From a virus, in IMG/VR virus record IMGVR_UViG_3300032307_000723, positions 32,001 to 96,000 of that record: a DNA stretch of 64,000 nucleotides; one strand, given 5' to 3'. The notes beneath the pieces were generated by a model, which was given only the letters and a program-made list of their open reading frames with translations, made no database searches and had not been told where the DNA came from. This document shows positions 11,431 through 45,405 of the stretch, one piece after another; positions within the stretch are counted from its first letter, which is position 1, and each line of letters opens with the position of its first letter. Made by a program: the position numbers and the translations under genes.

Positions 11431-13496
11431 TGGCGAATATTATTATATACCCACAAGGTAATGTTGGAAATACCGACCCTAACATAATTTTTGATGATGG
11501 GTCATCTAAGTTGCAATTTAATGTTAAGAATGGTTTCTTATCTCTATCGTCATCAACAATTAGTGATGGTGTTAATATCGGTCCTCAAAATGTTGTGGTT
11601 TCAGGTACTTCAATTACAGGACCAAGTGCTTCATTAGTTGTAGGTGGGGTTCAAATGATTAATAGTTCAGCCGTATGGGTTGGACCTCCTGAACCATTAA
11701 TAGGTTTCCAAGGTGCTCAAGGTGCTCAGGGAGCTAAAGGTAATACAGGTGCTCAAGGTGCTCAAGGTGCTCAAGGTCCCGTAGGGGCTCAAGGTTTTCA
11801 AGGTTTTACAGGACCTACAGGGTTTGTCGGACCACAAGGACCTCAAGGAGCGCAAGGAGCTCAAGGGTTTCAAGGTTCCACCGGACCAACAGGTGATACC
11901 GGAGTTCAAGGTGCTCAGGGTTCTGCGGGATTTACAGGGCCAACAGGAATTCCGGGAGAGGTTGGACCAACAGGTGATGCTGGTCTTACAGGTGCCCAAG
12001 GTTCTCAAGGTTCTCAAGGACCTACAGGTAATACAGGTGCTCAAGGGGCTAAAGGTCCACAGGGTGCTCAAGGACCTCAAGGAGCACAGGGGCCAAAAGG
12101 ATTTGTTGGACCTACAGGACCTACAGGACCACAAGGTAGTCAAGGTGCACAAGGTGTGAATGCCGGTGCCACAGGTCCACAAGGGTCTCAAGGTCCACAA
12201 GGGTCTCAAGGACCTACAAGTGGTGTTCAAGGTTCCCAAGGAGGTCAAGGTGCTCAAGGTTCCCAAGGTGCTCAAGGTGCTCAAGGTGCTGTTCAAGGTG
12301 CCCAAGGTTCTCAAGGTGCCCAAGGTTCCCAAGGTGCTCAAGGAGCTAATAGTAGTGTCCAAGGTGCTCAAGGTTCCCAAGGTGCTCAAGGTTCTCAAGG
12401 GGGTCAAGGTGCACAAGGTGCGGTTCAAGGTGCTCAAGGTGCTCAAGGTGTTCAAGGTGCTCAAGGTTCCCAAGGTGCTCAAGGTGCAAATGCAGGTGCT
12501 ACAGGACCTCAAGGTGCCCAAGGAGGACCAGGTGCTCCGGGTGCTCCCGGTACAAATTCCGTAGTTTCAGGTGCTCCGGGTCCAACAGGTCCTACCGGTG
12601 CTCAAGGAGCTCAGGGTGCAACACAAGGTGCACCTGGATTTACAGGACCTACAGGTAGCCAAGGTTCTCAAGGGGCGGGTAGTATTATTATGGGGGCAAC
12701 CGGACCACAAGGTTCTCAAGGGGCAACAGGTAATACAGGTGCTCAAGGTGCAAACGCTGGTGCACCGGGAGTTCCAGGTCCAACCGGAGCACAAGGTGCC
12801 CAAGGACCCGCAACCGCTCCCGGACCACAAGGTTTTCAAGGAAATCAAGGTGCCCAAGGAAACGTAGGAGTCGGTGGTGCTCCGGGTCCATCAGGTACCG
12901 TAGGACCACAAGGTGCTCAAGGGCCTAAAGGACCACAAGGTGCTCAAGGTCCTAAAGGGCCACAAGGTGCTCAAGGTCCTAAAGGACCACAAGGTGCTCA
13001 AAGTGCTCCGGGAGCTTCGGGGGCACAAGGAGCAACAGGTCCTCAAGGAGTGCAAGGTTCTCAAGGGCCACAAGGTTCCCAAGGTGCTCAAGGAGAACTT
13101 AGACAAGGTTCTCAAGGTTCACAAGGAGGTCAAGGGGCTCAAGGTGCTCCATCCGATAAAAGATTAAAAGATAATATAACACCAATGGTAAATGTTTTAG
13201 AGAAAACAACCCAAATTAAAGGTGTTATATTTGAATGGGATAGAGAACATAAAAAAATTAAAGATAATAAATCAATTGTATTCCAAGAGGCTTTCTCAGG
13301 TGATTCAATTGGCTTTATTGCTCAAGATTTAGAAAAAGTGGTACCTGAAATGGTATTTACGGATGATGAAGGTTGGAAAAGTGTTAGTTATGGTCAAATG
13401 GTTAGTTTAGGTATTGGAGGGATTCAAGAACAAAAAAGAAGAGTTGACTCAATATATGAAAGAATAAATAAATTAAAACAAATTACAGGTGTCTGA
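11430..13496 (+). CDS. Collagen-like fibre protein 2 with S74-type chaperone
   Basis: Gly-X-Y tract runs directly into [10 protein letters not shown]...IKGVIFEW...GFIAQDLE. Confidence 0.88.
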
Positions 13497-15504
13497 GAAT
13501 ATTATAATAACCCCGGGTAGTGGTACAATTGATTTTAATAGTTCACTTGGAATAGATACTATTTTTATTATAGAATCTGGTTCGTTAAAATTCAAACGAA
13601 GTACTACCACAATTTTCACTATTGATAACACTTATCCTAACTTTAGAGTGAGTACTAATGATGGATTATATGTTATTAACACTTTTATTAATAATTATGG
13701 TTCTTTAATTAATTCTACAGGATGGTTAGGAAATAGACAGCCAACAGGTGCTCAAGGTTCACAAGGTGCGGTCGGTTCACAAGGTGCTCAAGGTTCACAA
13801 GGTGCCGGTGGGGCTCAAGGTAATATTGGTCCACAAGGACCACAAGGACCACAGGGGTCACAAGGTGCAACAGGTCCACAAGGTTCTCAAGGACCTAAAG
13901 GTTCTCAAGGAGCGCAAGGAGTTCAAGGTTCTCAAGGTGCTCAAGGAGACCAAGGACCACAAGGACCACAAGGGCCACAAGGATTTCAAGGTTCTCAAGG
14001 TGCAAAAGGTGCTCAAGGTCCACAAGGGTCTCAAGGTTCGACAGGACCTACCGGAGGTCAAGGACCACAAGGTTCTCAAGGTGCCCAAGGAGGACAAGGT
14101 GCTCAAGGATTAACACCTGGTTCCACGGGTCCACAGGGTCCTCAGGGGGATACAGGTGCTACGGGTCCAAAAGGTGATACCGGGCCAATAGGAGGACAAG
14201 GTTCTCAGGGTGCAACAGGTGCAACAGGTGCAACAGGCCCAGCAGGAGCGACAGGTGCTCAAGGGACAACAGGTCCTACAGGCCCAAAAGGTAATACAGG
14301 TCCAACAGGTCCAACGGGTGCTCAAGGTACTCAGGGTGCAACAGGACCTACCGGAGGTACAGGGCCTCAAGGTTCTCAAGGTGCTGCGGGAGCTCAAGGT
14401 CCGAAAGGTCCAAATGGTCCAACAGGTGCCCAAGGACCTACCGGAGGTCAAGGTTCTCAAGGTTCTAAAGGACCAACCGGACCAACCGGACCTATCGGAC
14501 CAACAGGAGGACAAGGTTCTCAAGGTTTTACAGGATTTGATGGGAATGGAGGTTCACAAGGTGCTCAAGGAGCTGTCGGTGCACAAGGATTCCAAGGTTT
14601 TACAGGTCCTCCGGGGTTCGTTGGGCCAACAGGAGGACAAGGTGCTCAAGGTTCTCAAGGGCCAACAGGTCCAAAAGGAGACCAAGGACCAACAGGTCCA
14701 CAAGGTTCTCAAGGTGCAACAGGACCACAAGGTTCTCAAGGGGCACAAGGTTCTCAAGGAGGACAGGGGTCACAAGGAGCAGCAGGAACGGTTCAAGGTG
14801 CTCAAGGTCTTCAAGGTCCTAAAGGACCAAGTGGTCCTGACGGGGCTGGAGGTTCACAAGGTGCTCAAGGAGATGTCGGTGCACAAGGATTCCAAGGGCC
14901 AACAGGTTTTCCTTCTGTGTCTCCAGGGTCCCCAGGTGCTGCGGGAACTGTACAAGGGGCTCAAGGTGCTGCGGGAACTGTTCAAGGGTCTCAAGGTAAT
15001 CCCGGAGGGGTTCAAGGTGCTCAAGGTGCTGGACCACAAGGTGCTCAAGGTTCTCAAGGTGCGGGTCCAAAAGGAGCTCAAGGAGCCTCAGGGGCACAAG
15101 GTTCTCAAGGAGCTAAAGGTCCATTAGGACCAACAGGTGCTCAAGGTGCTACAGGAGCACAAGGTGCTACTCCATCTGATAGTAGAATGAAAAAAAATAT
15201 TAGACCAATTGAAGATTCATTAGAAAAAGTTTTGAAAATGAGAGGGGTTTCATTTATTTGGAATAAAAATGAAATAACACCAAATTACGGGAAAGACATT
15301 GGATTTATAGCACAAGAAGTTGCCCACGTATTACCTGAATTAGTTTTTAAAAGTAGTAAAGAAAATTCTCACTTTCAGGTTAAATATAATGATGTAATCG
15401 CCCTTTGTTTGGAGGCGATTAAAGAACAATCAAGGTTGATTGATTTAAAAGAAGAAAGATTAGAAAGGTTAGAAAATAAAGCAAAAGAAAAGGGACTTGT
15501 TTAA
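13489..15504 (+). CDS. Collagen-like fibre protein 3 with S74-type chaperone
   Basis: GTG start; Gly-X-Y tract runs directly into [10 protein letters not shown]...MRGVSFIW...GFIAQEV. Confidence 0.88.
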
Positions 15505-15519
15505 GGTCCCTTTTTTTTT
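15491..15519. terminator. Bidirectional intrinsic terminator
   Basis: AGGGAC/GTCCCT stem with T-run, between convergent genes. Confidence 0.75.
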
Positions 15520-16495
15520 ATATGTAATCACCAAATATTTCGTTGATGTTCTTGTCAATTTCACTTGAATTAGGATAATCAGGTGCCCAAACACTAAGAC
15601 ATTCACCATTTTCTTCAAGGATGTCAATAAAATTTCCAAAGTATTCTAAAGTTTGATTAGTTCCTTTATTATTATAAAGATAATCTCTGATTGGTTCATA
15701 GAAATTTATAATCGGCATTTCAAGTACTTCTATTTGAGTTTCTTTTTTATATGGGTGTGGTTTGTAAATGTATTTTCGTTTTTCAGTATCAAACATCTCA
15801 TCAAGTTTACCCCACACTTCTCTAAACACTGCGGTTTCATAAGCCATATTATATGCATTAGAGTGGATTGAGTTTAATTCACTATCTAATTCGCTCAAAT
15901 CATGGTCTAATAAATAACCCATGGTTTCTGAGTCTCTAACAACATATTCAACATTCACCATAGTTATGGTTGCGTATTCGGTATTTTGTGATGATGCAAT
16001 TTCACCAAGTAATTCAGTTTCCGGTTCGATTTGTACCCCTTCCAAATTTTTGATAATATAACTGTATAAGTATTTTAAGTTTTCTTCGTTAAGTTCTTCA
16101 ATAACATCTCTGTAAACATCATCAGTTGTGTCCCAATATCTGTCCCAATCAGCTTCTCCTAATAGTATTTCACGAATTGTATCCTGACTAATATCATTTC
16201 TACCTGCACAGAATAGTTTTGCCAAATCACTAGTATCGTTTAATTGTAGTACAGGAACCTCACCGTCAAATCTAACATCACTAATTTGTTTTGCAACTTC
16301 CTCTCTAAATTTCTCATTATTAGTTTGAGACAAATAATAAAGGTAATCATTTACCATATAATTCTCTTCCAAATCAAGGTCATCTATACGACCTCTTCTT
16401 TCGATTATTTTGAAAAAAGTTTCGGCATCGTTAAAATATTTTTCAACATCTAATTCGGTATTATTAAACGAATCTATTACATTATCTATATCCAT
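15518..16495 (-). CDS. Acidic hypothetical protein
   Basis: 325 aa D/E-rich ORF; TATTTAT upstream. Confidence 0.75.
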   Translation of the reverse strand: MDIDNVIDSFNNTELDVEKYFNDAETFFKIIERRGRIDDLDLEENYMVNDYLYYLSQTNNEKFREEVAKQISDVRFDGEVPVLQLNDTSDLAKLFCAGRNDISQDTIREILLGEADWDRYWDTTDDVYRDVIEELNEENLKYLYSYIIKNLEGVQIEPETELLGEIASSQNTEYATITMVNVEYVVRDSETMGYLLDHDLSELDSELNSIHSNAYNMAYETAVFREVWGKLDEMFDTEKRKYIYKPHPYKKETQIEVLEMPIINFYEPIRDYLYNNKGTNQTLEYFGNFIDILEENGECLSVWAPDYPNSSEIDKNINEIFGDYI

Positions 16496-26384: not shown

Positions 26385-26807
26385 ATGGGAATTAAAAGGT
26401 ATGTCGGAGTTTTAGTAAAATGTGGTAATAAAGTTTTACTATGTAAGAGAAACGCTAAGGGTCCATATCCAGGTATGTGGTCATTACCCGGTGGTCATCT
26501 TGAAAAAAATGAGACCACCTTGGATTGTGCAAAGAGAGAATTCTTTGAGGAAACTGATATAGATATTGATGATATGGATTTAACTTTCGTTGGTGTTGTC
26601 CCAAGAACAAGTCGTGATGGAAGAGAAATTAGAGGGATTATGTATGTTTATCAATTGGATGTGGATAAAGAATTGGAGCCTGACTTAGATAACGCTATGG
26701 ATGGTGAAGAACATACTGATTGGGAATACTTTACCAGTAATCAGGTGAAACCGGAGAAGACCGGAGTGAAACTACACAAACTCATTACACACGTAATGGA
26801 AAAATAA
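26385..26807 (+). CDS. NUDIX hydrolase
   Basis: WSLPGGHLEKNETTLDCAKREFFEETDI Nudix box; ATG at 26385. Confidence 0.88.
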   Translation: MGIKRYVGVLVKCGNKVLLCKRNAKGPYPGMWSLPGGHLEKNETTLDCAKREFFEETDIDIDDMDLTFVGVVPRTSRDGREIRGIMYVYQLDVDKELEPDLDNAMDGEEHTDWEYFTSNQVKPEKTGVKLHKLITHVMEK

Positions 26808-26870
26808 TTTAATTTTTATTTGGCAATACCAAAATTAGTTGTATCTTTGTACTCACAAAACGGTAGAGAT

Positions 26871-27125
26871 ATGGCTAAAGAGAAATTATACAGAAGTGTT
26901 TACGGAGAATACCTTTATCTATTTAATTGGATTGGTGGGGGATTTAATGATGTTTGGGCTCCGAGTAAGAGAGAGGCATATGCCAAGGTCATGAGAGAAC
27001 AAAAAGTTCACGAAAAGAAATATCCAACACACGTTAAGTTGAGACCTGATTATAAGTCAATGAGAAAATGTACTTATTCTCAGTATCAAGCACAAAACCG
27101 AATGGGTTGGATGATGAGTATGTAA
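26871..27125 (+). CDS. Hypothetical protein
   Basis: ATG at 26871 downstream of TAnnTTTG box 26842-26849. Confidence 0.65.
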   Translation: MAKEKLYRSVYGEYLYLFNWIGGGFNDVWAPSKREAYAKVMREQKVHEKKYPTHVKLRPDYKSMRKCTYSQYQAQNRMGWMMSM

Positions 27126-27280
27126 AAACTACTTGAGTAAGCGGGAGTGGTCAATCAACAACCCGAAGAAGGTTCAGGTAAAACTATATTTAAAAGAGGA
27201 CGGCCGAGCCTATAATAGAGTAAGTAGGAAGTTAATGTTTTTTAGGAAGATTGAGTCAGTTTTTAACATTAACGAAACAT

Positions 27281-27382
27281 AGTCAGGAGACCATTGGTTG
27301 GTATCACCTCCCCAAGGTTGAGTAACGGTAAGGCCGACTCTTTATGGCAAAGACGGAACAGGTTCGAATCCTGTCCTGACTA
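27281..27382 (+). ncRNA. Atypical tRNA-like RNA with enlarged core (102 nt)
   Basis: Acceptor AGTCAGG/CCTGACT, canonical T arm ACAGG-TTCGAAT-CCTGT, D-like arm ACC-ATTGGTT-GGT; no canonical anticodon loop; ~36 nt extra region; no encoded CCA. Confidence 0.75.
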
Positions 27383-27536
27383 CAAATTAAAAAAAAAATA
27401 ACAAAGGTATTGACTTTTGGTGATGTTAGGAGATATTTATATTCTCACGGTTCGAGAGAACCAAAACACCCCAACAAAAGTTTCATAAAAAATTTGGTAG
27501 TATCAAAACTATTACTTACCTTTGTGAAACATATAT

Positions 27537-27585
27537 CCCACAGATGTATGTTCGAGAGAATTTATGTGTGTGGGTTTTTTTTTTC
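27537..27585 (+). terminator. Hairpin with GAGA tetraloop followed by T-run
   Basis: CCCACA/TGTGGG outer stem, TTC-GAGA-GAA apex, long T-run. Confidence 0.55.
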
Positions 27586-27629
27586 AAAAAAAAAGTGTTA
27601 AAGTTTTTGACAAATCAAAATAAATGTTT

Positions 27630-27637
27630 TACCTTTG
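27630..27637 (+). promoter_or_regulatory. Bacteroidota-type -7 box driving the tRNA-like RNA cluster
   Basis: TACCTTTG with upstream TTTTTGACA. Confidence 0.65.
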
Positions 27638-27675
27638 TCGAAGAAATAAAGTTCATAAAAATATTGAAAGATTGG

Positions 27676-27748
27676 TGTGGGTGTCGTGTCGAGGTTTCAA
27701 ATCCCTCCGGATTTATCCGTAGCTCAGGTGGTAGAGCATACACCCACA
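27676..27748 (+). ncRNA. Circularly permuted tRNA-like RNA (YrlA/Y-RNA-like architecture)
   Basis: Order: stem strand TGTGGGTGT, V loop, T arm GAGG(T)TTCAAAT(C)CCTC, closed acceptor hairpin CGGAT-TT-ATCCG, TA-GCTC-AGGTGGTA-GAGC D arm, complementary strand ACACCCACA. Confidence 0.75.
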
Positions 27749-27759
27749 TTTTTTTATAT

Positions 27760-27834
27760 GACTACGATAGCTCAGCGGGTAGAGCAATCATTGGGAACAA
27801 TGGTGTGCCGGTGGTTCGATTCCATCTCTAGTCA
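27760..27834 (+). ncRNA. tRNA-like RNA with GNRA tetraloop in place of anticodon loop
   Basis: GACTA(C)GA/TCTAGTC acceptor with bulge, TA-GCTC-AGCGGGTA-GAGC D arm, ATCATTG-GGAA-CAATGGT arm, GGTGG-TTCGATT-CCATC T arm. Confidence 0.78.
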
Positions 27835-27846
27835 CAAATAGATTAC

Positions 27847-27964
27847 TCTGTGATAAGATAGCAGATAGACCTATTACAGCAGACTATCCCGACGGGAGTG
27901 CGAGTTTTAGGTAGTAAAGAATGGGTGACCTACGAATTTGTAAATCTTAAGGTCTTATCACAGA
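27847..27964 (+). ncRNA. Unidentified structured RNA (~118 nt)
   Basis: 12-bp closing stem TCTGTGATAAGA/TCTTATCACAGA; inner TCCC/GGGA and TAGGT/ACCTA stems; no ORF. Confidence 0.55.
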
Positions 27965-27990
27965 TTAAAAAAAAAAGTTTTATAGAGTTC

Positions 27991-28018
27991 TTGACAAATA
28001 GAAATTATGTGTTATACT
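27991..28018 (+). promoter_or_regulatory. Promoter for the large ncRNA
   Basis: TTGACA-16 nt-TATACT with TG extension. Confidence 0.7.
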
Positions 28019-28029
28019 TATAAAACAAA

Positions 28030-28910
28030 TTAGGGAAACCTAATACGTTCTTAGAAATTTTAGATTATCCATATAGTACTTCGGTATTATAAAAACGATA
28101 ATGGGTGGTATATCATCCTTAAATAAACCGGGAAACCGGGATAAAGTGAATCTGTTGTGTTGACAGGTTTGCGGTCTCAGAAATGGGACTCGAGTATACA
28201 AGTCGGATATCACCTGACCTTCAGTATTGAGGGCAACGCTTTAGAGAAAGTGGTTGGGTGACCGGGCGATGTGGGTCGTCAGGTTGAGGAGGGAACTCCA
28301 ATAAGAATAACCGATAGGAACCAAACAAGAAATTAGGTCATCCAACTTAGTAATTGTGGGTTCCAATATCAGAGAGGACTTAAAACCGAAAGGTATGATA
28401 GAGAACGAGTGGTGTCGCTACTATCCTTACAAAACATCTACCAAGGTGTCAGTTTGAAGTAATCTTAAAATATGAGAGTGGGGACACTCTACCGAGTAGA
28501 TTAGTATTTTGTTGTTCAAAAGATAACGAAGCTTACGACAGACCTCTACTTGGACACATCCACGACACATTTAACTTATAGGATATTTTAAGTAAAACTA
28601 AAAGATACATAAGCAAAAGTGTCTGTCAGGTATCATCGACAAGGTGACTACATAGTAACGAGCCGTTCGTTGCACAGGATGACCGCAAGTCTGAATGTAT
28701 TCTTACGAAAAACCTCTAAGGAGTCGAATCCCGAGTCAGTCCGCAAGATTGAAGAGAGTTGAATAATAAGAGAGTAGATGATATCTCAAGGAGTAATTGG
28801 TCTAACCAATTGTCACTGAGAATTACCATTCAAAAGATGGTGGAAAAGAAGGGAAACTATAATCCTTCCGAAGATTCTTAATAACACGAGTATTCTCATC
28901 GTATTAGCCA
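28030..28910 (+). ncRNA. GOLLD-like large structured RNA (~0.88 kb)
   Basis: No ORF, raised GC, many tetraloop hairpins (TATAGTAC-TTCG-GTATTATA, CCGG-GAAA-CCGG, GTCTCA-GAAA-TGGGAC, GGAG-GGAA-CTCC, ACC-GAAA-GGT, GAGTG-GGGA-CACTC, two GCAA loops); 3' region GAGTAG..TCTCAAGGAGT..GTCACTGAG..TCAAAAG..GAAGGG..AATCCTTC recalls GOLLD; adjacent to tRNA-like genes; own promoter and terminator. Confidence 0.7.
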
Positions 28911-28912
28911 AA

Positions 28913-28945
28913 GAGGTGTTACATTAATTTGTAACACCTTTTTTT
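28913..28945 (+). terminator. Intrinsic terminator ending the large ncRNA
   Basis: AGGTGTTACA/TGTAACACCT stem plus T-run. Confidence 0.8.
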
Positions 28946-28977
28946 GTTTATATGAATTTTTATATTATATTTGCATC

Positions 28978-29259
28978 ATGAGAAAAGTAAAAACAAAAGA
29001 TTCGGAAAGAATCTATACCGGACAATTTCGTAAAAAAAGAGTATTATCAATCTTTCCATTTATTATTATGGATGGAATAAAAAGTGATTTCCATTGGACC
29101 GGAAAATGGTTCCAATATGTTACGGTCAAACAACAAAAGATAAAAGACCGTTATTTGGAGTTCAATGAAGGGAATTACCAAAATTATTGGGGTAAATGGG
29201 AGACAACTTGGGTTTTTACCAAAATTATGAAAAATGAACAAGTCAATAAACATTATTAA
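28978..29259 (+). CDS. Hypothetical protein
   Basis: 93 aa ORF behind TATATTTG box 28966-28973. Confidence 0.65.
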   Translation: MRKVKTKDSERIYTGQFRKKRVLSIFPFIIMDGIKSDFHWTGKWFQYVTVKQQKIKDRYLEFNEGNYQNYWGKWETTWVFTKIMKNEQVNKHY

Positions 29260-29671
29260 TAAGAAAGCCAGATTTGAATATGAATTTCTACAGACTGAGA
29301 TTTGCGGTATTCAATTGGTAGGTTCTGAGGTTAAGTCAATCCGTCAGGGAAAAGTATCCATATCTGAAGGGTATTGTTATTTCAAAGATGGTGAGTTATT
29401 CGTAAAGGGTATGAATATATCTGACTACGGGTTTGGTTCATTTCATGAGACCGTTAGGGACCGTAAGTTATTATTAAAACGAAAAGAGTTGAATGAATTG
29501 GAATCAAAACTTATCAACGGACTTACCATTGTTCCTCATAGAGTGTTTCTTAATGGTAAAGGATTGATTAAAATGGAGATTGTTCTTGCTAAAGGTAAAA
29601 AGATTCACGATAAAAGAGAAAGTATTAAATCTCGAGACATTGACCGGGATATGAAAAGAGTTCAACTATGA
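29234..29671 (+). CDS. smpB: SsrA-binding protein SmpB
   Basis: NKKARFEY, GIQLVGSEVKSIR, RDRKLLL, LTIVP, KMEIVLAKGKKIHDKRESIK. Confidence 0.93.
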   Translation: MNKSINIINKKARFEYEFLQTEICGIQLVGSEVKSIRQGKVSISEGYCYFKDGELFVKGMNISDYGFGSFHETVRDRKLLLKRKELNELESKLINGLTIVPHRVFLNGKGLIKMEIVLAKGKKIHDKRESIKSRDIDRDMKRVQL

Positions 29672-30555
29672 ATGTAATTTGGGTTGCTGAAGACATTAAA
29701 AAAGATGGTACGTTTAAACAAAGTAAACCGGAACTAATGTGTACGGTTTCTTGTGTTTTATTCGTGAAACATTATTATCCGGAATTTAAAAGAATATTTT
29801 TTGTGGATGATTTCACCAAAGAATATTATAATCAATTTGGTATTTTAGAATTGTTTGATGAGGTTAACGATACCTTATTGAATGAACCGATTGATATTGA
29901 TAAAGAAATATTTTGGGCGGCTAGTAAAATTATGGCACAAAGAATAACTCCCGGGCCAACCATTACATTTGATTTAGATTTTAGGATTTATGATGACATA
30001 TCTAAATTAGGTGTGTTTGATGGAGATGTAAGTTGTTTGTGGTTAGAAGAAATTAATAACGAGTTTTATGGGAAACCGGAGAATCTCTTAAAATACCCAA
30101 ATTTAAAATGGGATTTTAATTGGACAGACAATGCTCTGAATGTTTCATTTCTTTATTTGAAAGATGAAGACTTCAAGAATAGATATTGTGATTTGGCGTT
30201 AGAGTTCATGAAATCATCATATGGTAGAATCCCCAAAAATTTAGATAGAGTACAGAACAATAAGTTTATATTGTTTATTGAACAATATATGTTATATCAG
30301 TTGTGTTTAAGTCATAATCAGAAGGTAAAATTATTGATAGATGATTTCTATCCGATTAAAGACAATATCGTGAGCGGGTGTGGTGTTAATATGAGTACTT
30401 GTTGTAATCATTTTTACCATTTTGGAGACCATAAAAAATTGATGGAGATAGATAACGAGTTCTATTGGAATGAAGTTAACCTATGTTACGAAATCACAAA
30501 TAAAAATATTAGTGATGAATATGGGCTAAATGTATTTAATAAAATTTATAATTAA
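29668..30555 (+). CDS. Putative nucleotide-sugar transferase-like protein (DUF6734-like)
   Basis: IFWAASKI...TFDLDF DxD-type motif. Confidence 0.55.
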   Translation: MNVIWVAEDIKKDGTFKQSKPELMCTVSCVLFVKHYYPEFKRIFFVDDFTKEYYNQFGILELFDEVNDTLLNEPIDIDKEIFWAASKIMAQRITPGPTITFDLDFRIYDDISKLGVFDGDVSCLWLEEINNEFYGKPENLLKYPNLKWDFNWTDNALNVSFLYLKDEDFKNRYCDLALEFMKSSYGRIPKNLDRVQNNKFILFIEQYMLYQLCLSHNQKVKLLIDDFYPIKDNIVSGCGVNMSTCCNHFYHFGDHKKLMEIDNEFYWNEVNLCYEITNKNISDEYGLNVFNKIYN

Positions 30556-30578
30556 GTGATAAATAACTAATTATAGTA

Positions 30579-31097
30579 ATGAAAGTTACTTGTGGGTTAA
30601 CATATTATTATGAGGATTTTATTACTATTGAAGAACAAAGATTCTTAAGTGAATGGGTATTAAATAATGAAGAAAATTTAATTCCAAATCCAACGGGACC
30701 ATATCGTAAAAGAAAAGTATTAAATAAATTACCGGACTATCCAAACATTTTAACTGAATTAAAAGAAAGAATTATACGATTGGAGAATCTTAATATTTCA
30801 GAAGATATTATAACAAATGGTGACCAAGATATTGTTAGTGTTCAACGAAATATGGGAATGGTTCCGGAACATATTGATTATGATAGGATTGAAGGGTATT
30901 ATTTGAGGAGATATAATATATTTGTTTCTTTACCTGAAGAAGGTGGATTACCCGTATATGATGGGAAGGTTATTGAGTTGAAGGAAAGATGTGTGTTGAA
31001 AGTAGATGCTGGATTAATATCCCATTCGACTACTAAAATAAATGGTGAGATACCTCGTATAATGTTATCTTATGGTTTTAATATAAAAAGAATATAA
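30579..31097 (+). CDS. 2OG-Fe(II) oxygenase
   Basis: HID (HxD), EEGG, distal H (SHST), R (RIMLSYG). Confidence 0.78.
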   Translation: MKVTCGLTYYYEDFITIEEQRFLSEWVLNNEENLIPNPTGPYRKRKVLNKLPDYPNILTELKERIIRLENLNISEDIITNGDQDIVSVQRNMGMVPEHIDYDRIEGYYLRRYNIFVSLPEEGGLPVYDGKVIELKERCVLKVDAGLISHSTTKINGEIPRIMLSYGFNIKRI

Positions 31098-31154
31098 TTT
31101 TATTTGTGAGTTTGTAAAAAATGATTATCTTTGTCCCAATAAAAAGATATAAAA

Positions 31155-31433
31155 ATGGAATTACCTAATTTTAATGTTAAGATTCAAAGTGAGAAGTTTG
31201 GAGTTTTGTTAAATGAAAATTTTTTTGACAGAACTCAGTTCAAAATATTTATCAGTATGGTTCAAGGGTCTATTGAATTAAAAAATGATTTTACATTTTT
31301 TAACGGGAATGATTTTTTGGTTCATATTCCTCACAAATATTTAATTGAATCTATTGTAACAACAAGTATGGATTTATCATTGACATTAACTGAGCACATG
31401 GCTAAAAAAATGAAATTAGAAGAATCTATTTGA
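31155..31433 (+). CDS. Hypothetical protein
   Basis: 92 aa ORF behind TATCTTTG box 31126-31133. Confidence 0.7.
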   Translation: MELPNFNVKIQSEKFGVLLNENFFDRTQFKIFISMVQGSIELKNDFTFFNGNDFLVHIPHKYLIESIVTTSMDLSLTLTEHMAKKMKLEESI

Positions 31434-31490
31434 TTTCCAAGTTAGATTAAACTTGGTGGTGGAGTCGGTACAAACTAGTACAGACCTAAA

Positions 31491-31519
31491 AAAAGGGACA
31501 TTTAGTCCCTTTTTTTTTT
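31491..31519. terminator. Bidirectional terminator
   Basis: AAAAGGGAC/GTCCCTTTT between convergent genes. Confidence 0.75.
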
Positions 31520-32015
31520 ATTGTTGTCTATCAAACCAAATCCCAAATCCACAATTTTCCCTGATAAAATCAAAACATTCGTCTCTTATGTTGTCAATCA
31601 TTTCATCAAATTCACCCCATTCACCCATTCCTAAATTTTCGTAAATTTCATCCATGTTTGAATCATACTCTTCACCATTTTCATCAACCCCGGTTAATCT
31701 ATTATCACCCCAACTCCAATCAATAAGAACTGCGTCTCCGGTTTCGTCTAAATCAATTCTTGATTGATGTATCTCAAGGTAAATATAATTGCGATTCTCA
31801 CTATCCAAAGGTACTCTAATCCCTTTTCCGTCTTTGTTTAGTTTGGAAAGTGCTCTCTCAGTAAATTCATTAGCTTTTATTTCTCCAACTTCTTTTATCA
31901 AATCAGGTAAAAAATTATCTAAATCATAATCCATCGACCTGGCTATTGACATTGTATTGGGACTAGGATATCCCATCTTATTCATTACTTTTAAAAATCT
32001 ATTTAACTCACTCAT
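31518..32015 (-). CDS. Hypothetical protein
   Basis: 165 aa ORF. Confidence 0.7.
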   Translation of the reverse strand: MSELNRFLKVMNKMGYPSPNTMSIARSMDYDLDNFLPDLIKEVGEIKANEFTERALSKLNKDGKGIRVPLDSENRNYIYLEIHQSRIDLDETGDAVLIDWSWGDNRLTGVDENGEEYDSNMDEIYENLGMGEWGEFDEMIDNIRDECFDFIRENCGFGIWFDRQQ

Positions 32016-32029
32016 TTGTTTTAATACTA

Positions 32030-32881
32030 TCAGCTAAAATTACTCAGGTTTTGAAATGGTATATTAATAACAACCATACCATTTTGAGTTATTTTAAGTT
32101 TAGGGTTATCATCGTGTCCAAAACAATAGACCTCATTGGCATTAAATCCTTTTTTGAACTCAAGATAATTATCATCACCATAATACTTAATAACTAAGTA
32201 ATTGTTTTCTTGATGATAATTTTCGGTTGTTGTTATTGGTACCAAAGTATTTTCAAATTCAATTGATTCTTGATTTAACTTTTTATTCCAACTTGCAATA
32301 ACTTCTATTTCGTAATTCCAATCATCAGTTTCAATCTCACCGATTTCATCACATTCTTGACAAGGTTCAATTCTACTTCCATAACATTCAGGACATTCTT
32401 CAACAGTATTACCATGACATGAAGAACAAGTCCTAAGACCATCACCATTACAATCCCAACATGATTCTTCTTCATTATCAGGGTCAATACCACTACCATT
32501 ACAGGTATCACAAGCAACTTCTCCGGTTGCGTCACATTCTTCACAAGGAGCTTCTCCAGTTCCATCACAGGTATTACATTCAACTTGTCCATCTCCTGCA
32601 CAAACTTCACATAATTCACGGTGATTAGACCCATCACTAAATAACATGTATAGGAATATTAAATCGTTTAGTATTTCTTCTCCTAATTCAAAAGATTGTG
32701 TTTTTTTATATGAGTAGATTAGAAATGTTAATTTAATGATGTTTTCTCCACCTATTATTTCAAAATAATCCAATTGTTTCTTTGACAAAGTTATCAATTC
32801 ATCATAGACATCTTGAGGTGTCTCAGAATATTTTACAATATCTTCAAGTCTAATAGCAATTTTTTTTAATTTTTCGTTCAT
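32030..32881 (-). CDS. Protein with tandem CxxCxGxG (DnaJ-type) zinc-finger repeats
   Basis: CEVCAGDG, CNTCDGTG, CEECDATG, CDTCNGSG, CWDCNGDG, CSSCHGN, CPECYGS, CQECDEIG. Confidence 0.8.
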   Translation of the reverse strand: MNEKLKKIAIRLEDIVKYSETPQDVYDELITLSKKQLDYFEIIGGENIIKLTFLIYSYKKTQSFELGEEILNDLIFLYMLFSDGSNHRELCEVCAGDGQVECNTCDGTGEAPCEECDATGEVACDTCNGSGIDPDNEEESCWDCNGDGLRTCSSCHGNTVEECPECYGSRIEPCQECDEIGEIETDDWNYEIEVIASWNKKLNQESIEFENTLVPITTTENYHQENNYLVIKYYGDDNYLEFKKGFNANEVYCFGHDDNPKLKITQNGMVVINIPFQNLSNFS

Positions 32882-32959
32882 ATTATGTTAAATATTAACA
32901 ATAAATAGATTTGTTTTAGGAAAGATATTAATTATATTTTTATTATAAACTCGTATAAT

Positions 32960-33247
32960 ATGTCAATTAAAATTAAAATCACAGAAGAAGAAATTTTGAG
33001 TAAACCAAATGACTCTGAATTAGGGTCATACATTAGATATAAATACTTGGTTCAAAAGGACTCATTAAAACAAGAGAAGGATGTGTTATCTCTTGGACAA
33101 ATACCCGATGACGAACCGGAGAGATGTTTGGTTTGTGGTGAATTCACACCATACACTAAAGACACTCATGTTGATTTTAGGGTGGGTTATATTAGAGGGG
33201 CTGGTCAAGGATGTTACACACCAATAAAATGTGAAAAAAATAATTAA
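32960..33247 (+). CDS. Hypothetical protein with Cys motifs
   Basis: ERCLVCG...RVGYIRGAGQGC. Confidence 0.65.
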   Translation: MSIKIKITEEEILSKPNDSELGSYIRYKYLVQKDSLKQEKDVLSLGQIPDDEPERCLVCGEFTPYTKDTHVDFRVGYIRGAGQGCYTPIKCEKNN

Positions 33248-33305
33248 ATTGTTTTGTGGTTTAAATTAATTCCTTATCTTTGTACTCAATAAAAACCACT
33301 ACCAT

Positions 33306-34040
33306 ATGTCACACACTACCATTTCAAAAGTTCGTAATTATCAAGGAAACAATTCATTTGTAAATAAAATGAAAGATGTTGTTAACAAATACGGTTCATT
33401 AACCGTTAAACAAGTTGAAGCAGTTGAAAAATGTCTTAAATCTACTGCGGTTGTTGAGACTAAAGAATTACCTGAAGACGTTAAGAGAATTGTTGATTAC
33501 GTAGGTGAGAACTCTTTTGTTAAAGAGATTGGTTCTAAGTTCAAAAAGTATGGTACTTTAACTGAGAAACAAATCTCAGCAGCAATTAACCAAATTCAAA
33601 AAGAAGAGGATAAAGAAAGAACGATTCGTATGAATTGGCCGACAATCGGTGAGACAATTAAAATCACTCGTAAAGTTGGGGAAGAGTTGAAAAAAACTTA
33701 TGACCTTCAATTCAATCCTATCTTACTTGATATTACAAGATTGAAAGCAGTTAGTCCTAAAGCAGTTCAGTTTGTCGGTAAGATGACTGTTAACCGAGGT
33801 AAAGTTTGTACTTGTTGTGGTAGAACCCTGACTGATGAGTTCTCAATGTTAACCGGAATTGGTAGATTATGTGCAAAACACATCGGGGTTGAATATATCA
33901 CTGACCGAAGTCAAGCTGATAGATTCCGTAACGAATACCTTGACAGAGTTGAGGAAATTGGTGAGATGGAGTTTTGGATTCCAAAATCACAAATTGTGAA
34001 GTGGGACGGAATTACAGAGAAAATTTTAAGAACAATGTAA
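33306..34040 (+). CDS. Hypothetical protein with DUF6011-like zinc ribbon
   Basis: CTCCGRTLTDEFSMLTGIGRLCAK; TATCTTTG box 33275-33282. Confidence 0.65.
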   Translation: MSHTTISKVRNYQGNNSFVNKMKDVVNKYGSLTVKQVEAVEKCLKSTAVVETKELPEDVKRIVDYVGENSFVKEIGSKFKKYGTLTEKQISAAINQIQKEEDKERTIRMNWPTIGETIKITRKVGEELKKTYDLQFNPILLDITRLKAVSPKAVQFVGKMTVNRGKVCTCCGRTLTDEFSMLTGIGRLCAKHIGVEYITDRSQADRFRNEYLDRVEEIGEMEFWIPKSQIVKWDGITEKILRTM

Positions 34041-43622: not shown

Positions 43623-44129
43623 ATGAGAGAGTGGTGTATAGAACAACATAGAAAAACGAATCATATGTATGATGTGTATCTTCCATATGAGTTCCATTTA
43701 AGAATGGTGAACAATGTGTATAAAGACTTTCGACATTTATTGGATGAAGAATTGAATGATTATTGTGGTAAAGCTGTTTGGGGTCATGACTTAATTGAGG
43801 ACTGTAGAGTATCTTATAATGATGTGAAGAACCATTTAGATGAAGGTGCGGCTGATATTATTTACGCAGTTACCAACGACAAAGGTAAGAATCGTAAAGA
43901 GAGAGCCGGTGTGAAATACTATGAAGGAATCCGTAAAACTCCGGGAGCCGTGTTTGTAAAACTATGTGATAGAATTGCGAATGTTCAGTATGGTAAGATG
44001 ACTAAATCTCGTATGTTTGAGATGTATAAAAACGAAAACTCAGATTTTGAACAATATTTAGGTCGTTACACCTCAAACAAGGACCTGGAACCAATGTTTG
44101 TTTATTTAAAAAACCTATTCAATGAGTAA
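43623..44129 (+). CDS. HD-domain hydrolase, RelA/SpoT hydrolase-like (stand-alone)
   Basis: PYEFHL, HDLIEDC, VKLCDRIANV. Confidence 0.75.
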   Translation: MREWCIEQHRKTNHMYDVYLPYEFHLRMVNNVYKDFRHLLDEELNDYCGKAVWGHDLIEDCRVSYNDVKNHLDEGAADIIYAVTNDKGKNRKERAGVKYYEGIRKTPGAVFVKLCDRIANVQYGKMTKSRMFEMYKNENSDFEQYLGRYTSNKDLEPMFVYLKNLFNE

Positions 44130-44634
44130 GATTGTTAAAATATTCAATGAGTTAATTCATCAAAAACTATCATCGCAATTTGGTGAGGTTTTATTGGATT
44201 GTAAGTTAATTGGTAGAAATGGCGGGATTGGTGATTATCGATATGACTTGTTGTTTATTTTTGATAGTGAATATAATAATCCGAGTATACAACTTGAAAG
44301 TGTTTTAAGAACCTGTGACGAGCTATTTGATTGGATTGATTTAAGTTTTAGTACTAACCTCAGTATTGTTATAATGCATAAGTTTGGTAGAAACCAACAT
44401 TATAGTTATTTTGAGTTAATTGATGAGTTATGTAGACGTAATAGTTATTTTTCTTTTCATGAGTCAATGAGACATCCGAGGTATAAAGAGTATCAGGAAT
44501 GGAAACTTAATAAAGAACGTGAAGAAAGAAGAAGAAGTGCTTGGGAGATGGAGATGGGAAGAATAACAAGAAATGATTTAATGCAACAAACAAGAATGAC
44601 CGAATCAAGAAAAAAGAAGTTTTTATTTTGGTAA
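44122..44634 (+). CDS. Hypothetical protein
   Basis: 170 aa ORF. Confidence 0.6.
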   Translation: MSKIVKIFNELIHQKLSSQFGEVLLDCKLIGRNGGIGDYRYDLLFIFDSEYNNPSIQLESVLRTCDELFDWIDLSFSTNLSIVIMHKFGRNQHYSYFELIDELCRRNSYFSFHESMRHPRYKEYQEWKLNKEREERRRSAWEMEMGRITRNDLMQQTRMTESRKKKFLFW

Positions 44635-44673
44635 ATCAAAATAAAGGATTATCTTTGTTGAAAATAAATTGAT

Positions 44674-45405
44674 ATGTTTAAATTTTACGAAGTCGGAGGG
44701 AAAGTTAGGGATGAGATTTTAGGTCTTGAGTCTAAGGATGTGGATTATGTTGCGGTTCCAAGTGACAAATTACTTCAGGACTTTGACACTGCGGAATCAA
44801 TGTTCTCAATGTTGGAACAATATTTAAGAGATGAGAAGTTTGAAATCTTTTTAGTTACCGCAGATTGTTTTACAATTAGAGCTAAGTTCCCAAAAGACCA
44901 CAAGTATAGTGGTGTCGCAGACTTTGTTATGGCTCGAAAAGAGATTGGATATATCGAAGGTACAAGAACACCAATCGTTAAACCGGGGACATTATATGAT
45001 GACCTTGAGAGAAGGGATTTTACCTTGAATGCATTGGCAAAAGATGAAGATGGGAAAATCATCGACTTCTTCAACGGACTTGAAGATTTGAAGAATAAGT
45101 ATTTGATAACTCCATTACCAATTCATCAGACATTTAATGACGACCCTCTTAGAATTTTGAGGGCAATTAGATTCTCAATTACAAAAGGATTTACAATTCC
45201 TATGAGAATGGCACTTGTCATAGAATCGTACAACTACGATGAAAAGATGGGTGTTGTTTCAACAGAAAGAATTAGAGAGGAATTATTCAAGTGTTTTAAA
45301 CATGACACTTTGGAAACATTAAAAGTTCTTAATGAATTTCCATTACTGAAAAATTACATCTTCAAGGATAAAGGATTATGGTTAAAACCAACAATGGAGC
45401 AATAA
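44674..45405 (+). CDS. tRNA nucleotidyltransferase / poly(A) polymerase family (CCA-adding-like, compact)
   Basis: VGGKVRD, KDVDY, DLERRDFTLNA, FNDDPLRILRAIRF, ERIREE. Confidence 0.88.
   Translation: MFKFYEVGGKVRDEILGLESKDVDYVAVPSDKLLQDFDTAESMFSMLEQYLRDEKFEIFLVTADCFTIRAKFPKDHKYSGVADFVMARKEIGYIEGTRTPIVKPGTLYDDLERRDFTLNALAKDEDGKIIDFFNGLEDLKNKYLITPLPIHQTFNDDPLRILRAIRFSITKGFTIPMRMALVIESYNYDEKMGVVSTERIREELFKCFKHDTLETLKVLNEFPLLKNYIFKDKGLWLKPTMEQ

Follow-up and report, generated by a model that had tools for sequence, protein, structure and literature searches.

Non-decoding tRNA-like RNAs beside a GOLLD RNA and smpB in a freshwater jumbo phage

General features of the locus

The DNA analyzed here is a window of 64,000 nt, corresponding to positions 32,001–96,000 of a viral record of 117.6 kb which represents approximately 40% of a complete genome. 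The phage is a freshwater (lake) jumbo phage with a genome of ~300 kb, and the clade to which it belongs probably has its hosts among the Bacteroidota. A block on the plus strand of the window carries an anticodon-less tRNA-like RNA (E1), a short unit with promoter-like sites, a permuted tRNA-like module (E2), a tRNA body with a capped arm (E3), a multi-stem RNA (E4) and a GOLLD RNA, followed by a small gene and smpB. A first-pass annotation had described three tRNA-shaped RNAs with neither a canonical anticodon loop nor an encoded CCA, a structured RNA of 118 nt, a GOLLD-like RNA of ~0.88 kb and smpB one small gene further on, and each of these was recovered at the same position (by the scores and folds given below). 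It had also reported neither a tmRNA nor an ordinary tRNA in the window, an absence which was found to extend to the whole 117.6-kb record (Rfam and ARAGORN for tRNAs; Rfam, a clade-specific HMM and blastn for tmRNA). Complete relatives have 13–26 matches to the tRNA model each, most of them scoring 45–71 bits, in a separate island; the tRNA-like RNAs adjoining GOLLD in these genomes score 27–40 bits.

The order E2, E3, E4 and GOLLD is the same in related phages. In the 40 loci whose sequence reaches 3 kb or more upstream of smpB, GOLLD is present in 37, E2 together with E3 in 29, an E1-family element in 24 and E4 in 16. The E2–E3–(E4)–GOLLD order is fixed in all 29 loci having E2 and E3, and the element order is kept across phages whose SmpB proteins diverge by up to about 23%. 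Strong matches to E2 and E3 were found only adjoining the GOLLD of this clade. E2/E3 are missing from eight clade loci that do have GOLLD, smpB and a tmRNA, and at thirteen other GOLLD loci the nearby tRNAs are only ordinary ones. The earlier idea of a dedicated phage RNA module holds insofar as the tRNA mimics, GOLLD and smpB are conserved together across the clade and travel in a fixed order, with covariation in the RNAs, but the mimics E1, E2 and E3 are three separate, unrelated conserved families and not one set.

The tRNA-like RNAs E1, E2, and E3

E1 (27281..27382, plus strand) is an anticodon-less tRNA-like RNA of 102 nt which belongs to a tRNA-Leu-derived phage family. Its 7-bp acceptor stem (AGTCAGG/CCTGACT) and its T arm (ACAGG-TTCGAAT-CCTGT) are perfect and are followed by the tail ACAA, yet it reaches only 17.4 bits with RF00005 (cut-off 29), and it lacks a canonical anticodon arm (5-bp stem, 7-nt loop, U33 and a three-base anticodon). 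Copies with 91–99% identity occur in many relatives. Alignment A4 contains two compensatory changes. The wider family comprises at least 165 distinct variants, the acceptor and T stems being perfect in 165; its members share constant acceptor, D and T arms and have a hypervariable stretch where the anticodon domain would be. A canonical anticodon arm was found in six of the 165 members, compared with 5.4 expected by chance. Most members are not called by ARAGORN, and the rest are reported as tRNAs with scattered or two- or four-base 'anticodons'. The inserts gave no Rfam match, and 78 of them fell into 71 clusters with a mean folding z of −0.85. The notion that they are conserved structured cargo was rejected on this z value, on the near absence of recurrence and on an only slight enrichment of GNRA loops (29 against 22.7 expected), which together make a weak signal.

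The family occurs in more than 100 other viral contigs. GOLLD is present at one of the 118 loci fetched, on which count a general association of the two was dismissed, and in 56 of the 118 ARAGORN found no tRNA around the family member. The 25-nt 3' end of the family was detected in only 16 contigs among ~185,000 species genomes. Between their D and T arms these contigs carry stretches that all differ and are unrelated to one another, for which reason they look like mis-binned phage DNA and not host tRNA genes, and mimicry of one host tRNA was discarded on the same observation. The strict identity of this 25-nt end of E1 across very different phages could reflect a recent spread of the tRNA-Leu lineage rather than selection by a partner. 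In being phage-encoded, tRNA-associated and non-decoding, the family, which is known here from sequence, resembles RNAC and RNAD of phage T4, stable products of that phage's tRNA region which were never assigned a role (PMC3014915). It differs from these RNAs, which were compared by description, in its tRNA-Leu-type scaffold and in its occurrence in metagenomic phages, many of them probably phages of Bacteroidota.

E2 (27664..27760, core 27675–27749, plus strand) is a YrlA-type, circularly permuted tRNA-like module, in which the parts follow the order closing stem, T arm, sealed acceptor hairpin, D arm and closing stem. It aligns end to end with the YrlA model RF02553 (38 bits, E = 4.5e-6; the E2 of the related locus L018 gives 34 bits), both scores being below the cut-off of 69 bits, and as a tRNA it gives no match to RF00005. 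Its folding z is −2.8. Of the 19 pairs in alignment A1 (14 sequences), four have compensatory changes, and three of these four belong to the closing stem; this covariation indicates that the anticodon stem has been opened into the closing stem. The permuted tRNA-like domain, consisting of T arm, closed acceptor-like stem and D arm, is thus present. Like YrlA (RF02553; PMC4201824), E2 holds its T arm, sealed acceptor-like hairpin and D arm within a long stem; unlike YrlA, it has no recognizable Ro60-binding strand and stays under the model's cut-off. A phage-encoded Ro60 was rejected as its partner, no TROVE match being found in G000, G001, G002, G003, and G005 (four near-complete to complete relatives among them). 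Host Ro60 was rejected as a general partner, as TROVE was found in only 11 of 151 genomes (a tally that includes the unpublished genome G098) sampled from the class of a Chitinophagia MAG with an E1-family element; TROVE was also absent from the five MAGs, all incomplete, carrying E1-family elements.

E3 (27760..27835, plus strand) has the body of a tRNA, with an anticodon arm that consists of a 7-bp helix closed at its tip by GGAA, a GNRA tetraloop. With 30.2 bits it lies barely above the RF00005 cut-off of 29, and ARAGORN assigns it a 4-base 'anticodon'. The acceptor stem has one defect in the window. Compensatory changes affect 12 of the 29 pairs in alignment A3, in all 16 sequences of which the arm ends in GAAA or GGAA; the D-loop hairpin covaries as well. 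E3 starts 0–12 nt past the closing stem of E2 in the window and in most relatives with both elements, and it ends ~10 nt before E4.

None of the three mimics has an encoded CCA, their tails reading ACAA and CACAA, and G3:U70 is absent from all of them, the third acceptor pair being U-A in E1 and E3 (Rfam register). The tmRNA model RF00023 gave no match up to E = 10 across 26800–33600, a range covering E1–E3. A two-piece or permuted tmRNA called by ARAGORN within E1–E3 at its 80% threshold (27289–27922) was rejected, as its tag is nonsense and the acceptor of E2 is sealed. What the mimics keep is the tRNA 'top half', that is the acceptor/T minihelix and the D/T elbow, with the anticodon loop replaced by a GNRA-capped helix in E3, by a hypervariable insert in the E1 family and, in E2, through a circular permutation after which the anticodon stem serves as the closing stem. 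Their conservation and covariation across the ~300-kb phage clade support the view that E1–E3 are non-decoding genes and not decayed pseudo-tRNAs.

E4, promoters, and leaders

Between E1 and E2 lies a short unit (27400..27595, plus strand) composed of a promoter-like site (27410–27437), a GAGA-capped hairpin, a second promoter-like site of Bacteroidota type and a strong hairpin followed by a T-run (about 27536–27590). Its folding z is −4.2, and it is 96% conserved, only in the closest subclade (L001–L004). The promoter and leader of the E2–E3–E4 unit follow at 27607..27661 (plus strand), with TTGACA at 27607–27612, TACCTTTG at 27630–27637 and a boxA-like GTTCATAAAAA in the leader at 27651–27661. 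The −7 element of this promoter fits the Bacteroidota consensus TANNTTTGY (PMC12632263), and the whole block is kept in 10 of 11 relatives. A promoter scan of the plus strand returned no promoter-like site between 27437 and 27991.

E4 (27847..27964, plus strand) is a conserved multi-stem RNA of 118 nt closed by a 13-bp helix. It has a folding z of −3.1, with none of 200 shuffles folding as well, and no Rfam match up to E = 10. It is 94–98% identical in L001, L007, L013, and L026; in L005, L018, and L040 the inner hairpin gives way to a far longer insert (~130 nt net).

The GOLLD RNA

The GOLLD RNA (about 28025–28945, plus strand, ~0.9 kb) consists of a variable 5' domain, a conserved 3' domain and an intrinsic terminator with a 14-bp stem (28910–28943). 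The 3' domain matches Rfam RF02032 at 28492–28902 with 304.8 bits (cut-off 150 bits) over model positions 1–416 of 416, and the 5' half shares 72–96% identity with relatives and 73% with a 634-kb phage which also has the 3' domain. A promoter and leader of its own were located at 27991..28057 (plus strand): the promoter (27991–28018) scores 11/12 and has an extended −10 (TG), and it is followed by a GAAA-capped boxB-like hairpin (28030–28043) and a boxA-like CGTTCTTAGAAA (28046–28057). The leader is kept in 17 relatives, and the stem of its hairpin covaries. GOLLD is a textbook member of its family and its own transcription unit.

With its 305-bit 3' domain, variable 5' domain, length, phage context and nearby tRNA-type genes, the RNA itself does not differ from GOLLD RF02032. 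The difference lies in its neighbors, which here are non-decoding tRNA-like RNAs, whereas ordinary tRNAs stand beside known GOLLD RNAs. In this clade GOLLD is then followed by smpB and a convergent tmRNA, an arrangement which was not found in the literature examined. The env-38 GOLLD has been found by cryo-EM to form a 14-mer homo-oligomeric nanocage, a property known for env-38 alone, and in the same work tRNAs were proposed as possible cargo and a ribosome pull-down was cited (10.1101/2024.12.08.627333).

smpB and tmRNA

The smpB gene (29234–29671, plus strand) encodes a canonical protein of 145 aa with a basic C-terminal tail in the translation, matching Pfam PF01668 with 162.6 bits (7e-48; residues 8–143, profile positions 3–140 of 143). 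Its start is overlapped by a small gene (28978–29259, plus strand) for a product of 93 aa which has no match in Pfam or PHROG. This product is found with 54–63% identity directly upstream of smpB in L011, L012, L019, and L026 (tblastn), and because it is kept there in four relatives it is regarded as the product of a real gene. Exactly one smpB is present in each of G000–G003 and G005, and that of the window is 70–89% identical to the smpB of relatives with an adjacent tmRNA.

Of 44 related loci, 38 have a canonical tmRNA next to smpB in convergent orientation; the six without one beside smpB are L001–L004, which form the subclade of the window, and two outgroup loci. The tmRNAs of the clade have G3:U70 and a standard tRNA-like domain, CCA being encoded in five of ten. 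A tmRNA was found in all five near-complete to complete relatives, and smpB, GOLLD and a full-length tmRNA match each occur exactly once in every complete relative. In the closest complete relative (G001) the tmRNA is located at 218 kb and smpB at 23.5 kb, ~195 kb apart, and neither blastn nor tblastx matched the tmRNA region of this genome to G000. That the window itself might have a divergent tmRNA downstream of smpB, where relatives have theirs, was rejected, as Rfam at E up to 10 over 29600–33600, the clade HMM and blastn of the whole record were all empty.

The partner of smpB is likely to be the phage's own canonical tmRNA, as is the case in the relatives and as we infer for this genome. 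In the subclade of the window the tmRNA has moved, judging from the relatives, to a distant tRNA island, which here would lie outside the incomplete record. A normal tmRNA as the explanation of smpB, which the first-pass annotation had named as the outcome that would undo its proposal, largely applies, being found in the relatives but not in the ~40%-complete record. As with the tmRNA and SmpB of huge phages (PMC7162821), smpB is canonical here and the one-piece canonical tmRNA of the relatives adjoins it; the subclade of the window differs in that its tmRNA is not adjacent and would be outside the sequenced part of the genome.

Possible roles of the locus

The explanation that we favor, which taken as a whole has roughly an even chance of being correct, is that the locus is a stable-RNA island assembled from independent modules travelling together, in which smpB is partnered by tmRNA and the mimics, being neither SmpB ligands nor a replacement for tmRNA, are tRNA bodies that occupy tRNA-binding proteins. 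Judging from the conserved motifs, the mimics would owe their transcription to host-type promoters and follow rrn-like boxB/boxA leaders, with E2, E3 and E4 forming a single precursor. They would be excised by RNase P and RNase Z, and CCA would probably be added by the phage nucleotidyltransferase. Our best guess is that the products are stable, tRNA-processed bodies which, if abundant, non-decoding and without an anticodon loop to cut, would most likely occupy tRNA-binding proteins, for example through competitive inhibition of host tRNA-targeting nucleases. It has been proposed that YrlA's tRNA-like portion escapes cleavage by an anticodon nuclease, which it may competitively inhibit (PMC7790460).

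A further-reaching version of this reading is possible, if doubtful. The E1 family would be an undescribed and widespread tRNA-Leu-derived class of phage RNAs, its acceptor, D and T arms preserved nearly to the letter and its anticodon and variable arms exchanged for any sequence other than an anticodon loop, which, together with E2 and E3, provides three independent 'uncleavable tRNA bodies', mass-produced behind rRNA-style antitermination leaders and jamming host tRNA-directed defence; or else its members would be leucine carriers for a non-decoding purpose. LeuRS ignores the anticodon, so the E1 family could carry leucine without decoding. To our knowledge, the function of GOLLD has been open since 2009, and RNAC and RNAD of T4 are still unexplained. 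The clade offers a defined and conserved neighborhood of non-decoding tRNA bodies, GOLLD, smpB, convergent tmRNA, host-type promoters and rRNA-like leaders, where several hypotheses can be tested with a handful of RNAs, among them a link between GOLLD and translation and the inhibition of tRNA-targeting defences by tRNA bodies. Large and easy to find, the tRNA-Leu-scaffold family is also relevant to phage annotation, given the ARAGORN calls described above.

The decoy role is one of several that fit the anatomy, and the position of E3 between E2 and E4 is explained equally well by a processing or scaffold role, although as an account of the elements we consider the latter rather unlikely. The tRNA-like elements would then serve neighboring RNAs (the non-coding E2 and E4, perhaps mRNAs) by supplying cleavage sites for RNase P and RNase Z along with stable ends, and would be functionless after cleavage, in parallel with the tRNA-cluster precursors of T4, whose tRNA region yields RNAC and RNAD (PMC3014915). 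The close spacing of E3 to both neighbors and the single promoter and leader of E2–E3–E4 would agree with this, as would the E1 family, in which conservation is confined to the minihelix and elbow, the parts required by RNase P and RNase Z. However, nearly half of the E1-family loci (56 of 118) have no ARAGORN tRNA around them, and the GNRA cap and covarying D-loop hairpin of E3 exceed the needs of a cleavage signal. E2, tRNA-like as it is, has no free acceptor end and so cannot itself serve as punctuation.

GNRA loops are well-known modules for tertiary contacts, and the tetraloop of E3 might dock into a helix or receptor of GOLLD, in which case E2, E3 and possibly E4 would be cofactors or cargo of a nanocage. 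The fixed order in 29 of 29 loci and the restriction of strong E2/E3 matches to the GOLLD of this clade point in this direction, as do the tRNA cargo suggested and the ribosome pull-down cited in the cryo-EM paper (10.1101/2024.12.08.627333). The co-occurrence, however, comes entirely from one clade and amounts to a single evolutionary observation; the eight clade loci with GOLLD, smpB and tmRNA lack E2/E3, ordinary tRNAs are the only ones near GOLLD at the thirteen further loci, and inspection by eye revealed no convincing GNRA-receptor motif in GOLLD or E1. Such an accessory role is considered quite improbable.

SmpB binds the anticodon-less tRNA-like domain in tmRNA, and the first-pass annotation had put it forward as a possible partner of the mimics. 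With the mimic, GOLLD and smpB genes adjacent in a 117.6-kb record lacking a tmRNA, all three could be pictured as one machine, with SmpB binding the mimics instead of the missing tmRNA. This proposal did not hold up and is now highly improbable: tmRNA adjoins smpB in 38 of 44 relatives, G001 has its one tmRNA elsewhere and the record is only 40% complete. The mimics, moreover, lack the G3:U70 alanine identity pair, a full helix stands in E3 and E1 where SmpB would have its seat, and only one of the 118 other viral-contig loci fetched for the E1 family has GOLLD.

Decay of a tRNA island into functionless pseudo-tRNAs, to which the low tRNA-model scores (17–30 bits), the acceptor-stem defect of E3 in the window and the almost unconstrained E1-family inserts (mean z −0.85, 71 unique clusters from 78) might point, has very little probability, being largely refuted by the covariation (compensatory changes in E1, in four of the 19 E2 pairs and in 12 of the 29 E3 pairs) and opposed also by the perfect acceptor and T stems in 165 variants, the constant element order despite SmpB divergence and the dedicated conserved promoters and leaders.

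Enzymes elsewhere in the window

A CCA-adding-like enzyme previously noted at 44674 is indeed a tRNA nucleotidyltransferase (44674–45405, plus strand; phrog_24229, 3e-60; Pfam PolyA_pol head domain, 1.7e-18). The supposed SpoT-like hydrolase at 43623 is instead an HD-domain metal-dependent phosphohydrolase (43623–44129, plus strand; phrog_990, 2e-20; no Pfam match). Both enzymes likely serve in the maturation and repair of CCA-less phage tRNAs, tRNA-like RNAs and tmRNA.

Locus architecture and tRNA content

Relatives of the phage were recruited via SmpB, giving 74 viral loci, among which L001–L044 and L048 form one clade with complete genomes of 282–322 kb. Where at least 3 kb of sequence was available upstream of smpB (40 SmpB loci), GOLLD was found at 37 loci, the tRNA-shaped RNAs E2 and E3 at 29, at least one element of the E1 family at 24 and the structured RNA E4 at 16. 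The order was invariable, namely (E1 family), E2, E3, (E4), GOLLD, smpB, and one conserved promoter is common to E2, E3 and E4. As all of these loci belong to a single clade, the co-occurrence amounts to one evolutionary observation and not many.

The first-pass annotation had described the window as devoid of ordinary tRNAs and tmRNA, and this was borne out. The window covers positions 32001–96000 of an IMG/VR viral record. E3 was the only tRNA-like gene called by ARAGORN and Rfam, both within the window and across the entire source record, and no tmRNA was found in either (record length 117.6 kb; CheckV completeness ~40%). Complete relatives possess an ordinary tRNA complement in full at other genomic positions, with 13–26 tRNA-model matches, most of them scoring 45–71 bits.

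Three families of non-decoding tRNA-shaped RNAs

E1, E2 and E3 are members of three different families. In E1 (27281–27382) the acceptor stem (AGTCAGG/CCTGACT) and the T arm are both perfect; one small hairpin is D-like, and further hairpins stand in place of the anticodon and variable arms. Two compensatory changes occur among the close homologues of E1. Throughout its family, a hypervariable stretch is enclosed by the same acceptor and T arm and, in most members, by a D arm of the tRNA-Leu type; the elements measure 54–195 nt and occur in 1–5 copies per locus within the clade. Such an element is also present on over 120 other stretches of viral contigs among the matches listed, and on 16 contigs of metagenome-assembled genomes (MAGs). 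ARAGORN returned tRNA calls for 35 of the 165 distinct members, with scattered anticodons, and a purpose-built scan found a canonical anticodon arm in six of the 165 (5.4 expected from shuffles); three of these six read Leu-UAA and resemble real tRNA-Leu genes. Because the scaffold is kept while canonical anticodon arms stay at shuffle level, the family is, judging by sequence, a phage tRNA-Leu lineage whose decoding half has been repeatedly replaced. Almost every insert is unique (71 clusters among 78), and the inserts fold only slightly more stably than their shuffles (mean z −0.85). The family has no tie to GOLLD, which was present at one of 118 further E1-family loci among the matches listed. 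The MAG contigs with E1-family elements (L147–L162) bear labels such as Neisseriaceae, Mycobacterium, Rhizobium, Helicobacteraceae and Clavibacter, and the short ones assigned to very unlikely taxa are probably mis-binned phage contigs; labels on the longer ones are Chitinophagia, Sediminibacterium, Flavobacterium and Bacteroidia.

E2 (27664–27760) was aligned end to end by the Rfam YrlA model at 38 bits (E 4.5e-6; cut-off 69). The two are alike in a permuted module consisting of a T arm, a sealed acceptor hairpin and a D arm within a long closing stem, whereas the Ro60-binding strand is not recognisable in E2. Among E2 homologues (alignment A1, n = 14), compensatory changes were observed at three closing-stem positions and one T-stem position, and the sealed hairpin varies in length with its pairing kept. 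No gene for a TROVE protein is present in the window's record or in four relatives with complete or near-complete genomes. TROVE was detected in only 11 of 151 genomes (a tally that takes in the unpublished genome G098) drawn from the class to which a Chitinophagia MAG bearing an E1-family element belongs.

E3 (27760–27835; tRNA model 30.2 bits) has a normal D arm, variable loop and T arm, while its anticodon arm is a 7-bp helix with a GGAA cap. In an alignment of 16 homologues (A3), 12 of 29 pairs were changed on both sides with pairing kept, and the tip of the arm at the anticodon position is GAAA or GGAA in all members; in relatives, E3 has a covarying hairpin inserted within the D loop. 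This fold, which cannot decode, is on comparative grounds under selection. E4 (27847–27964), an RNA with several stems, hardly varies and is unmatched in Rfam. In its long form, seen in some relatives (L005:4748–4991; L018:3943–4187; L040:3608–3852), a much longer structured insert takes the place of the inner hairpin (~130 nt net gain), between flanks that both hardly change.

GOLLD and its leader

The identity of GOLLD is unambiguous, with its conserved 3′ domain (28492–28902) matching all 416 positions of RF02032 at 304.8 bits. A strong promoter with an extended −10 (27991–28018; 11/12) and a 14-bp terminator (28910–28943) bound an RNA of ~0.9 kb. The 5′ half is 72–96% conserved among relatives; a 634-kb phage with a GOLLD 3′ domain at the matching locus shares 73% identity with it.

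The GOLLD leader contains a covarying, GAAA-capped hairpin (28030–28043) followed by a boxA-like element, CGTTCTTAGAAA (28046–28057), at the position of which one relative has GTTCTTTAACA. The E2-E3-E4 unit has a boxA-like element of its own, GTTCATAAAAA (27651–27661); the E. coli boxA is UGCUCUUUAACAA. Leader elements occur at matching positions 3′ of the GOLLD and E2-E3-E4 promoters in L001–L048. The hairpin and boxA-like elements are reminiscent of the boxB/boxA leaders associated with antitermination in rRNA operons, and leaders of this type would suit long untranslated RNAs.

smpB and the tmRNA

The window's smpB (29234–29671) is a canonical one, scoring 162.6 bits against PF01668. Between it and GOLLD lies a small gene (28978–29259), which is considered real because its product is conserved (54–63% protein identity) at the same position in four relatives. 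Directly 3′ of smpB, the window has a ~1.4-kb block (29668–31100) that is extra relative to its closest relative, L003, and carries genes for a DUF6734 protein of 295 aa and for a protein of 172 aa (phrog_13746).

In relatives, a full-length tmRNA (Rfam, 62–105 bits) lies 0.1–1.5 kb downstream of smpB on the opposite strand, and a clade-specific HMM placed a tmRNA beside smpB in 38 of the 44 loci with enough downstream sequence. The other six are two outgroup loci and L001–L004, the window's own subclade (89% identity). The closest complete relative, G001 (309 kb), which belongs to this subclade, has a single smpB at 23.5 kb, a single GOLLD at 24 kb and a single full-length tmRNA match at 218.1 kb (50.6 bits), 10–25 kb from an island of canonical tRNAs. 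Neither blastn nor tblastx matched this tmRNA region to the window's record, which by extrapolation from synteny would span roughly 279–309 kb and 1–87 kb of G001. Given that synteny, the likeliest explanation for the missing tmRNA is an incomplete sequence combined with a rearrangement.

A G3:U70 pair is present in the tmRNAs of the clade, whose tRNA-like domain is of the standard type, with CCA encoded in five of ten. ARAGORN picks up two of the ten that Rfam finds (among L007, L018, L030, L031, L035, L036, L079 and L080), and in both cases it reads a long tag with VA instead of AA at the end (e.g. GNILDKMSAIGLIRAEEVVVA). It is already known that huge phages encode tmRNA and SmpB (PMC7162821). 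On 13 other viral contigs with the GOLLD motif (L088, L094, L096, L100, L101, L105, L112, L113, L119, L125, L133, L137 and L142), the clade's tmRNA lies 0.3–4 kb from GOLLD and smpB is unmatched in the stored stretch, so the GOLLD-tmRNA pairing may predate the insertion of smpB. Thirteen further GOLLD loci have ordinary tRNAs only.

Possible function of the tRNA-shaped RNAs

The E1, E2 and E3 families retain the minihelix and elbow, lack the anticodon loop, and have dedicated conserved promoters and leaders. The window also encodes a tRNA nucleotidyltransferase, with the head domain only, and an HD phosphohydrolase, as separate genes 0.5 kb apart (within 43623–45405). As the HD domain is fused to the nucleotidyltransferase in E. 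coli Cca, these may be a split version of a Cca-type enzyme. RNase P, RNase Z and CCA addition would mature the tRNA-shaped RNAs into stable tRNA bodies, which could bind tRNA-recognising proteins while being neither decoded nor cut at the anticodon. Such binding would accord with a design, arrived at three times independently, in which the body is kept and the loop removed; taken together with the modular annotation, it has roughly even odds. The idea has been published for YrlA, whose tRNA-like domain escapes cleavage by a DNA-damage-induced anticodon nuclease and might act as a competitive inhibitor of that enzyme (PMC7790460).

The main rival to protein binding is that the tRNA-shaped elements are processing and stability handles only, for which the T4 tRNA cluster yielding RNAC and RNAD is a precedent (PMC3014915). 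It is also possible that they are GOLLD accessories, a reading that depends on a single clade; the authors of the GOLLD cryo-EM study speculated on tRNA cargo and cited a ribosome pull-down (10.1101/2024.12.08.627333). The earlier proposal that SmpB partners the mimics in a genome without tmRNA is unlikely, as a tmRNA adjoins smpB in most loci, that of G001 lies elsewhere in the genome and E1–E3 have no alanine identity features. Pseudo-tRNAs are likewise improbable, with double-sided changes preserving the pairing of E3.

Of the components, GOLLD, phage smpB and tmRNA, modules of the YrlA type and stable phage RNAs resembling tRNAs belong to kinds already described. Apparently undescribed in the literature searched are the family built on a tRNA-Leu scaffold, the GNRA-capped one, and the arrangement of GOLLD, smpB and convergent tmRNA with rRNA-style leaders.

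Probable host

In relatives (L001–L048), the RNA-gene promoters have the form TTG...N19...TAnnTTTG and lie ~40 nt 5′ of GOLLD and of E2 (e.g. L005:5010–5050). Because this form fits the −33/−7 promoter consensus of Bacteroidota (PMC12632263), the host is probably a member of that phylum. The window's own GOLLD promoter has drifted from the Bacteroidota type to a sigma-70-like TTGACA/TATACT. The G+C content at 10000–16000, a region spanning three large ORFs (9124–11430, 11430–13496 and 13489–15504), is 45–47%, compared with ~30% elsewhere in the window.
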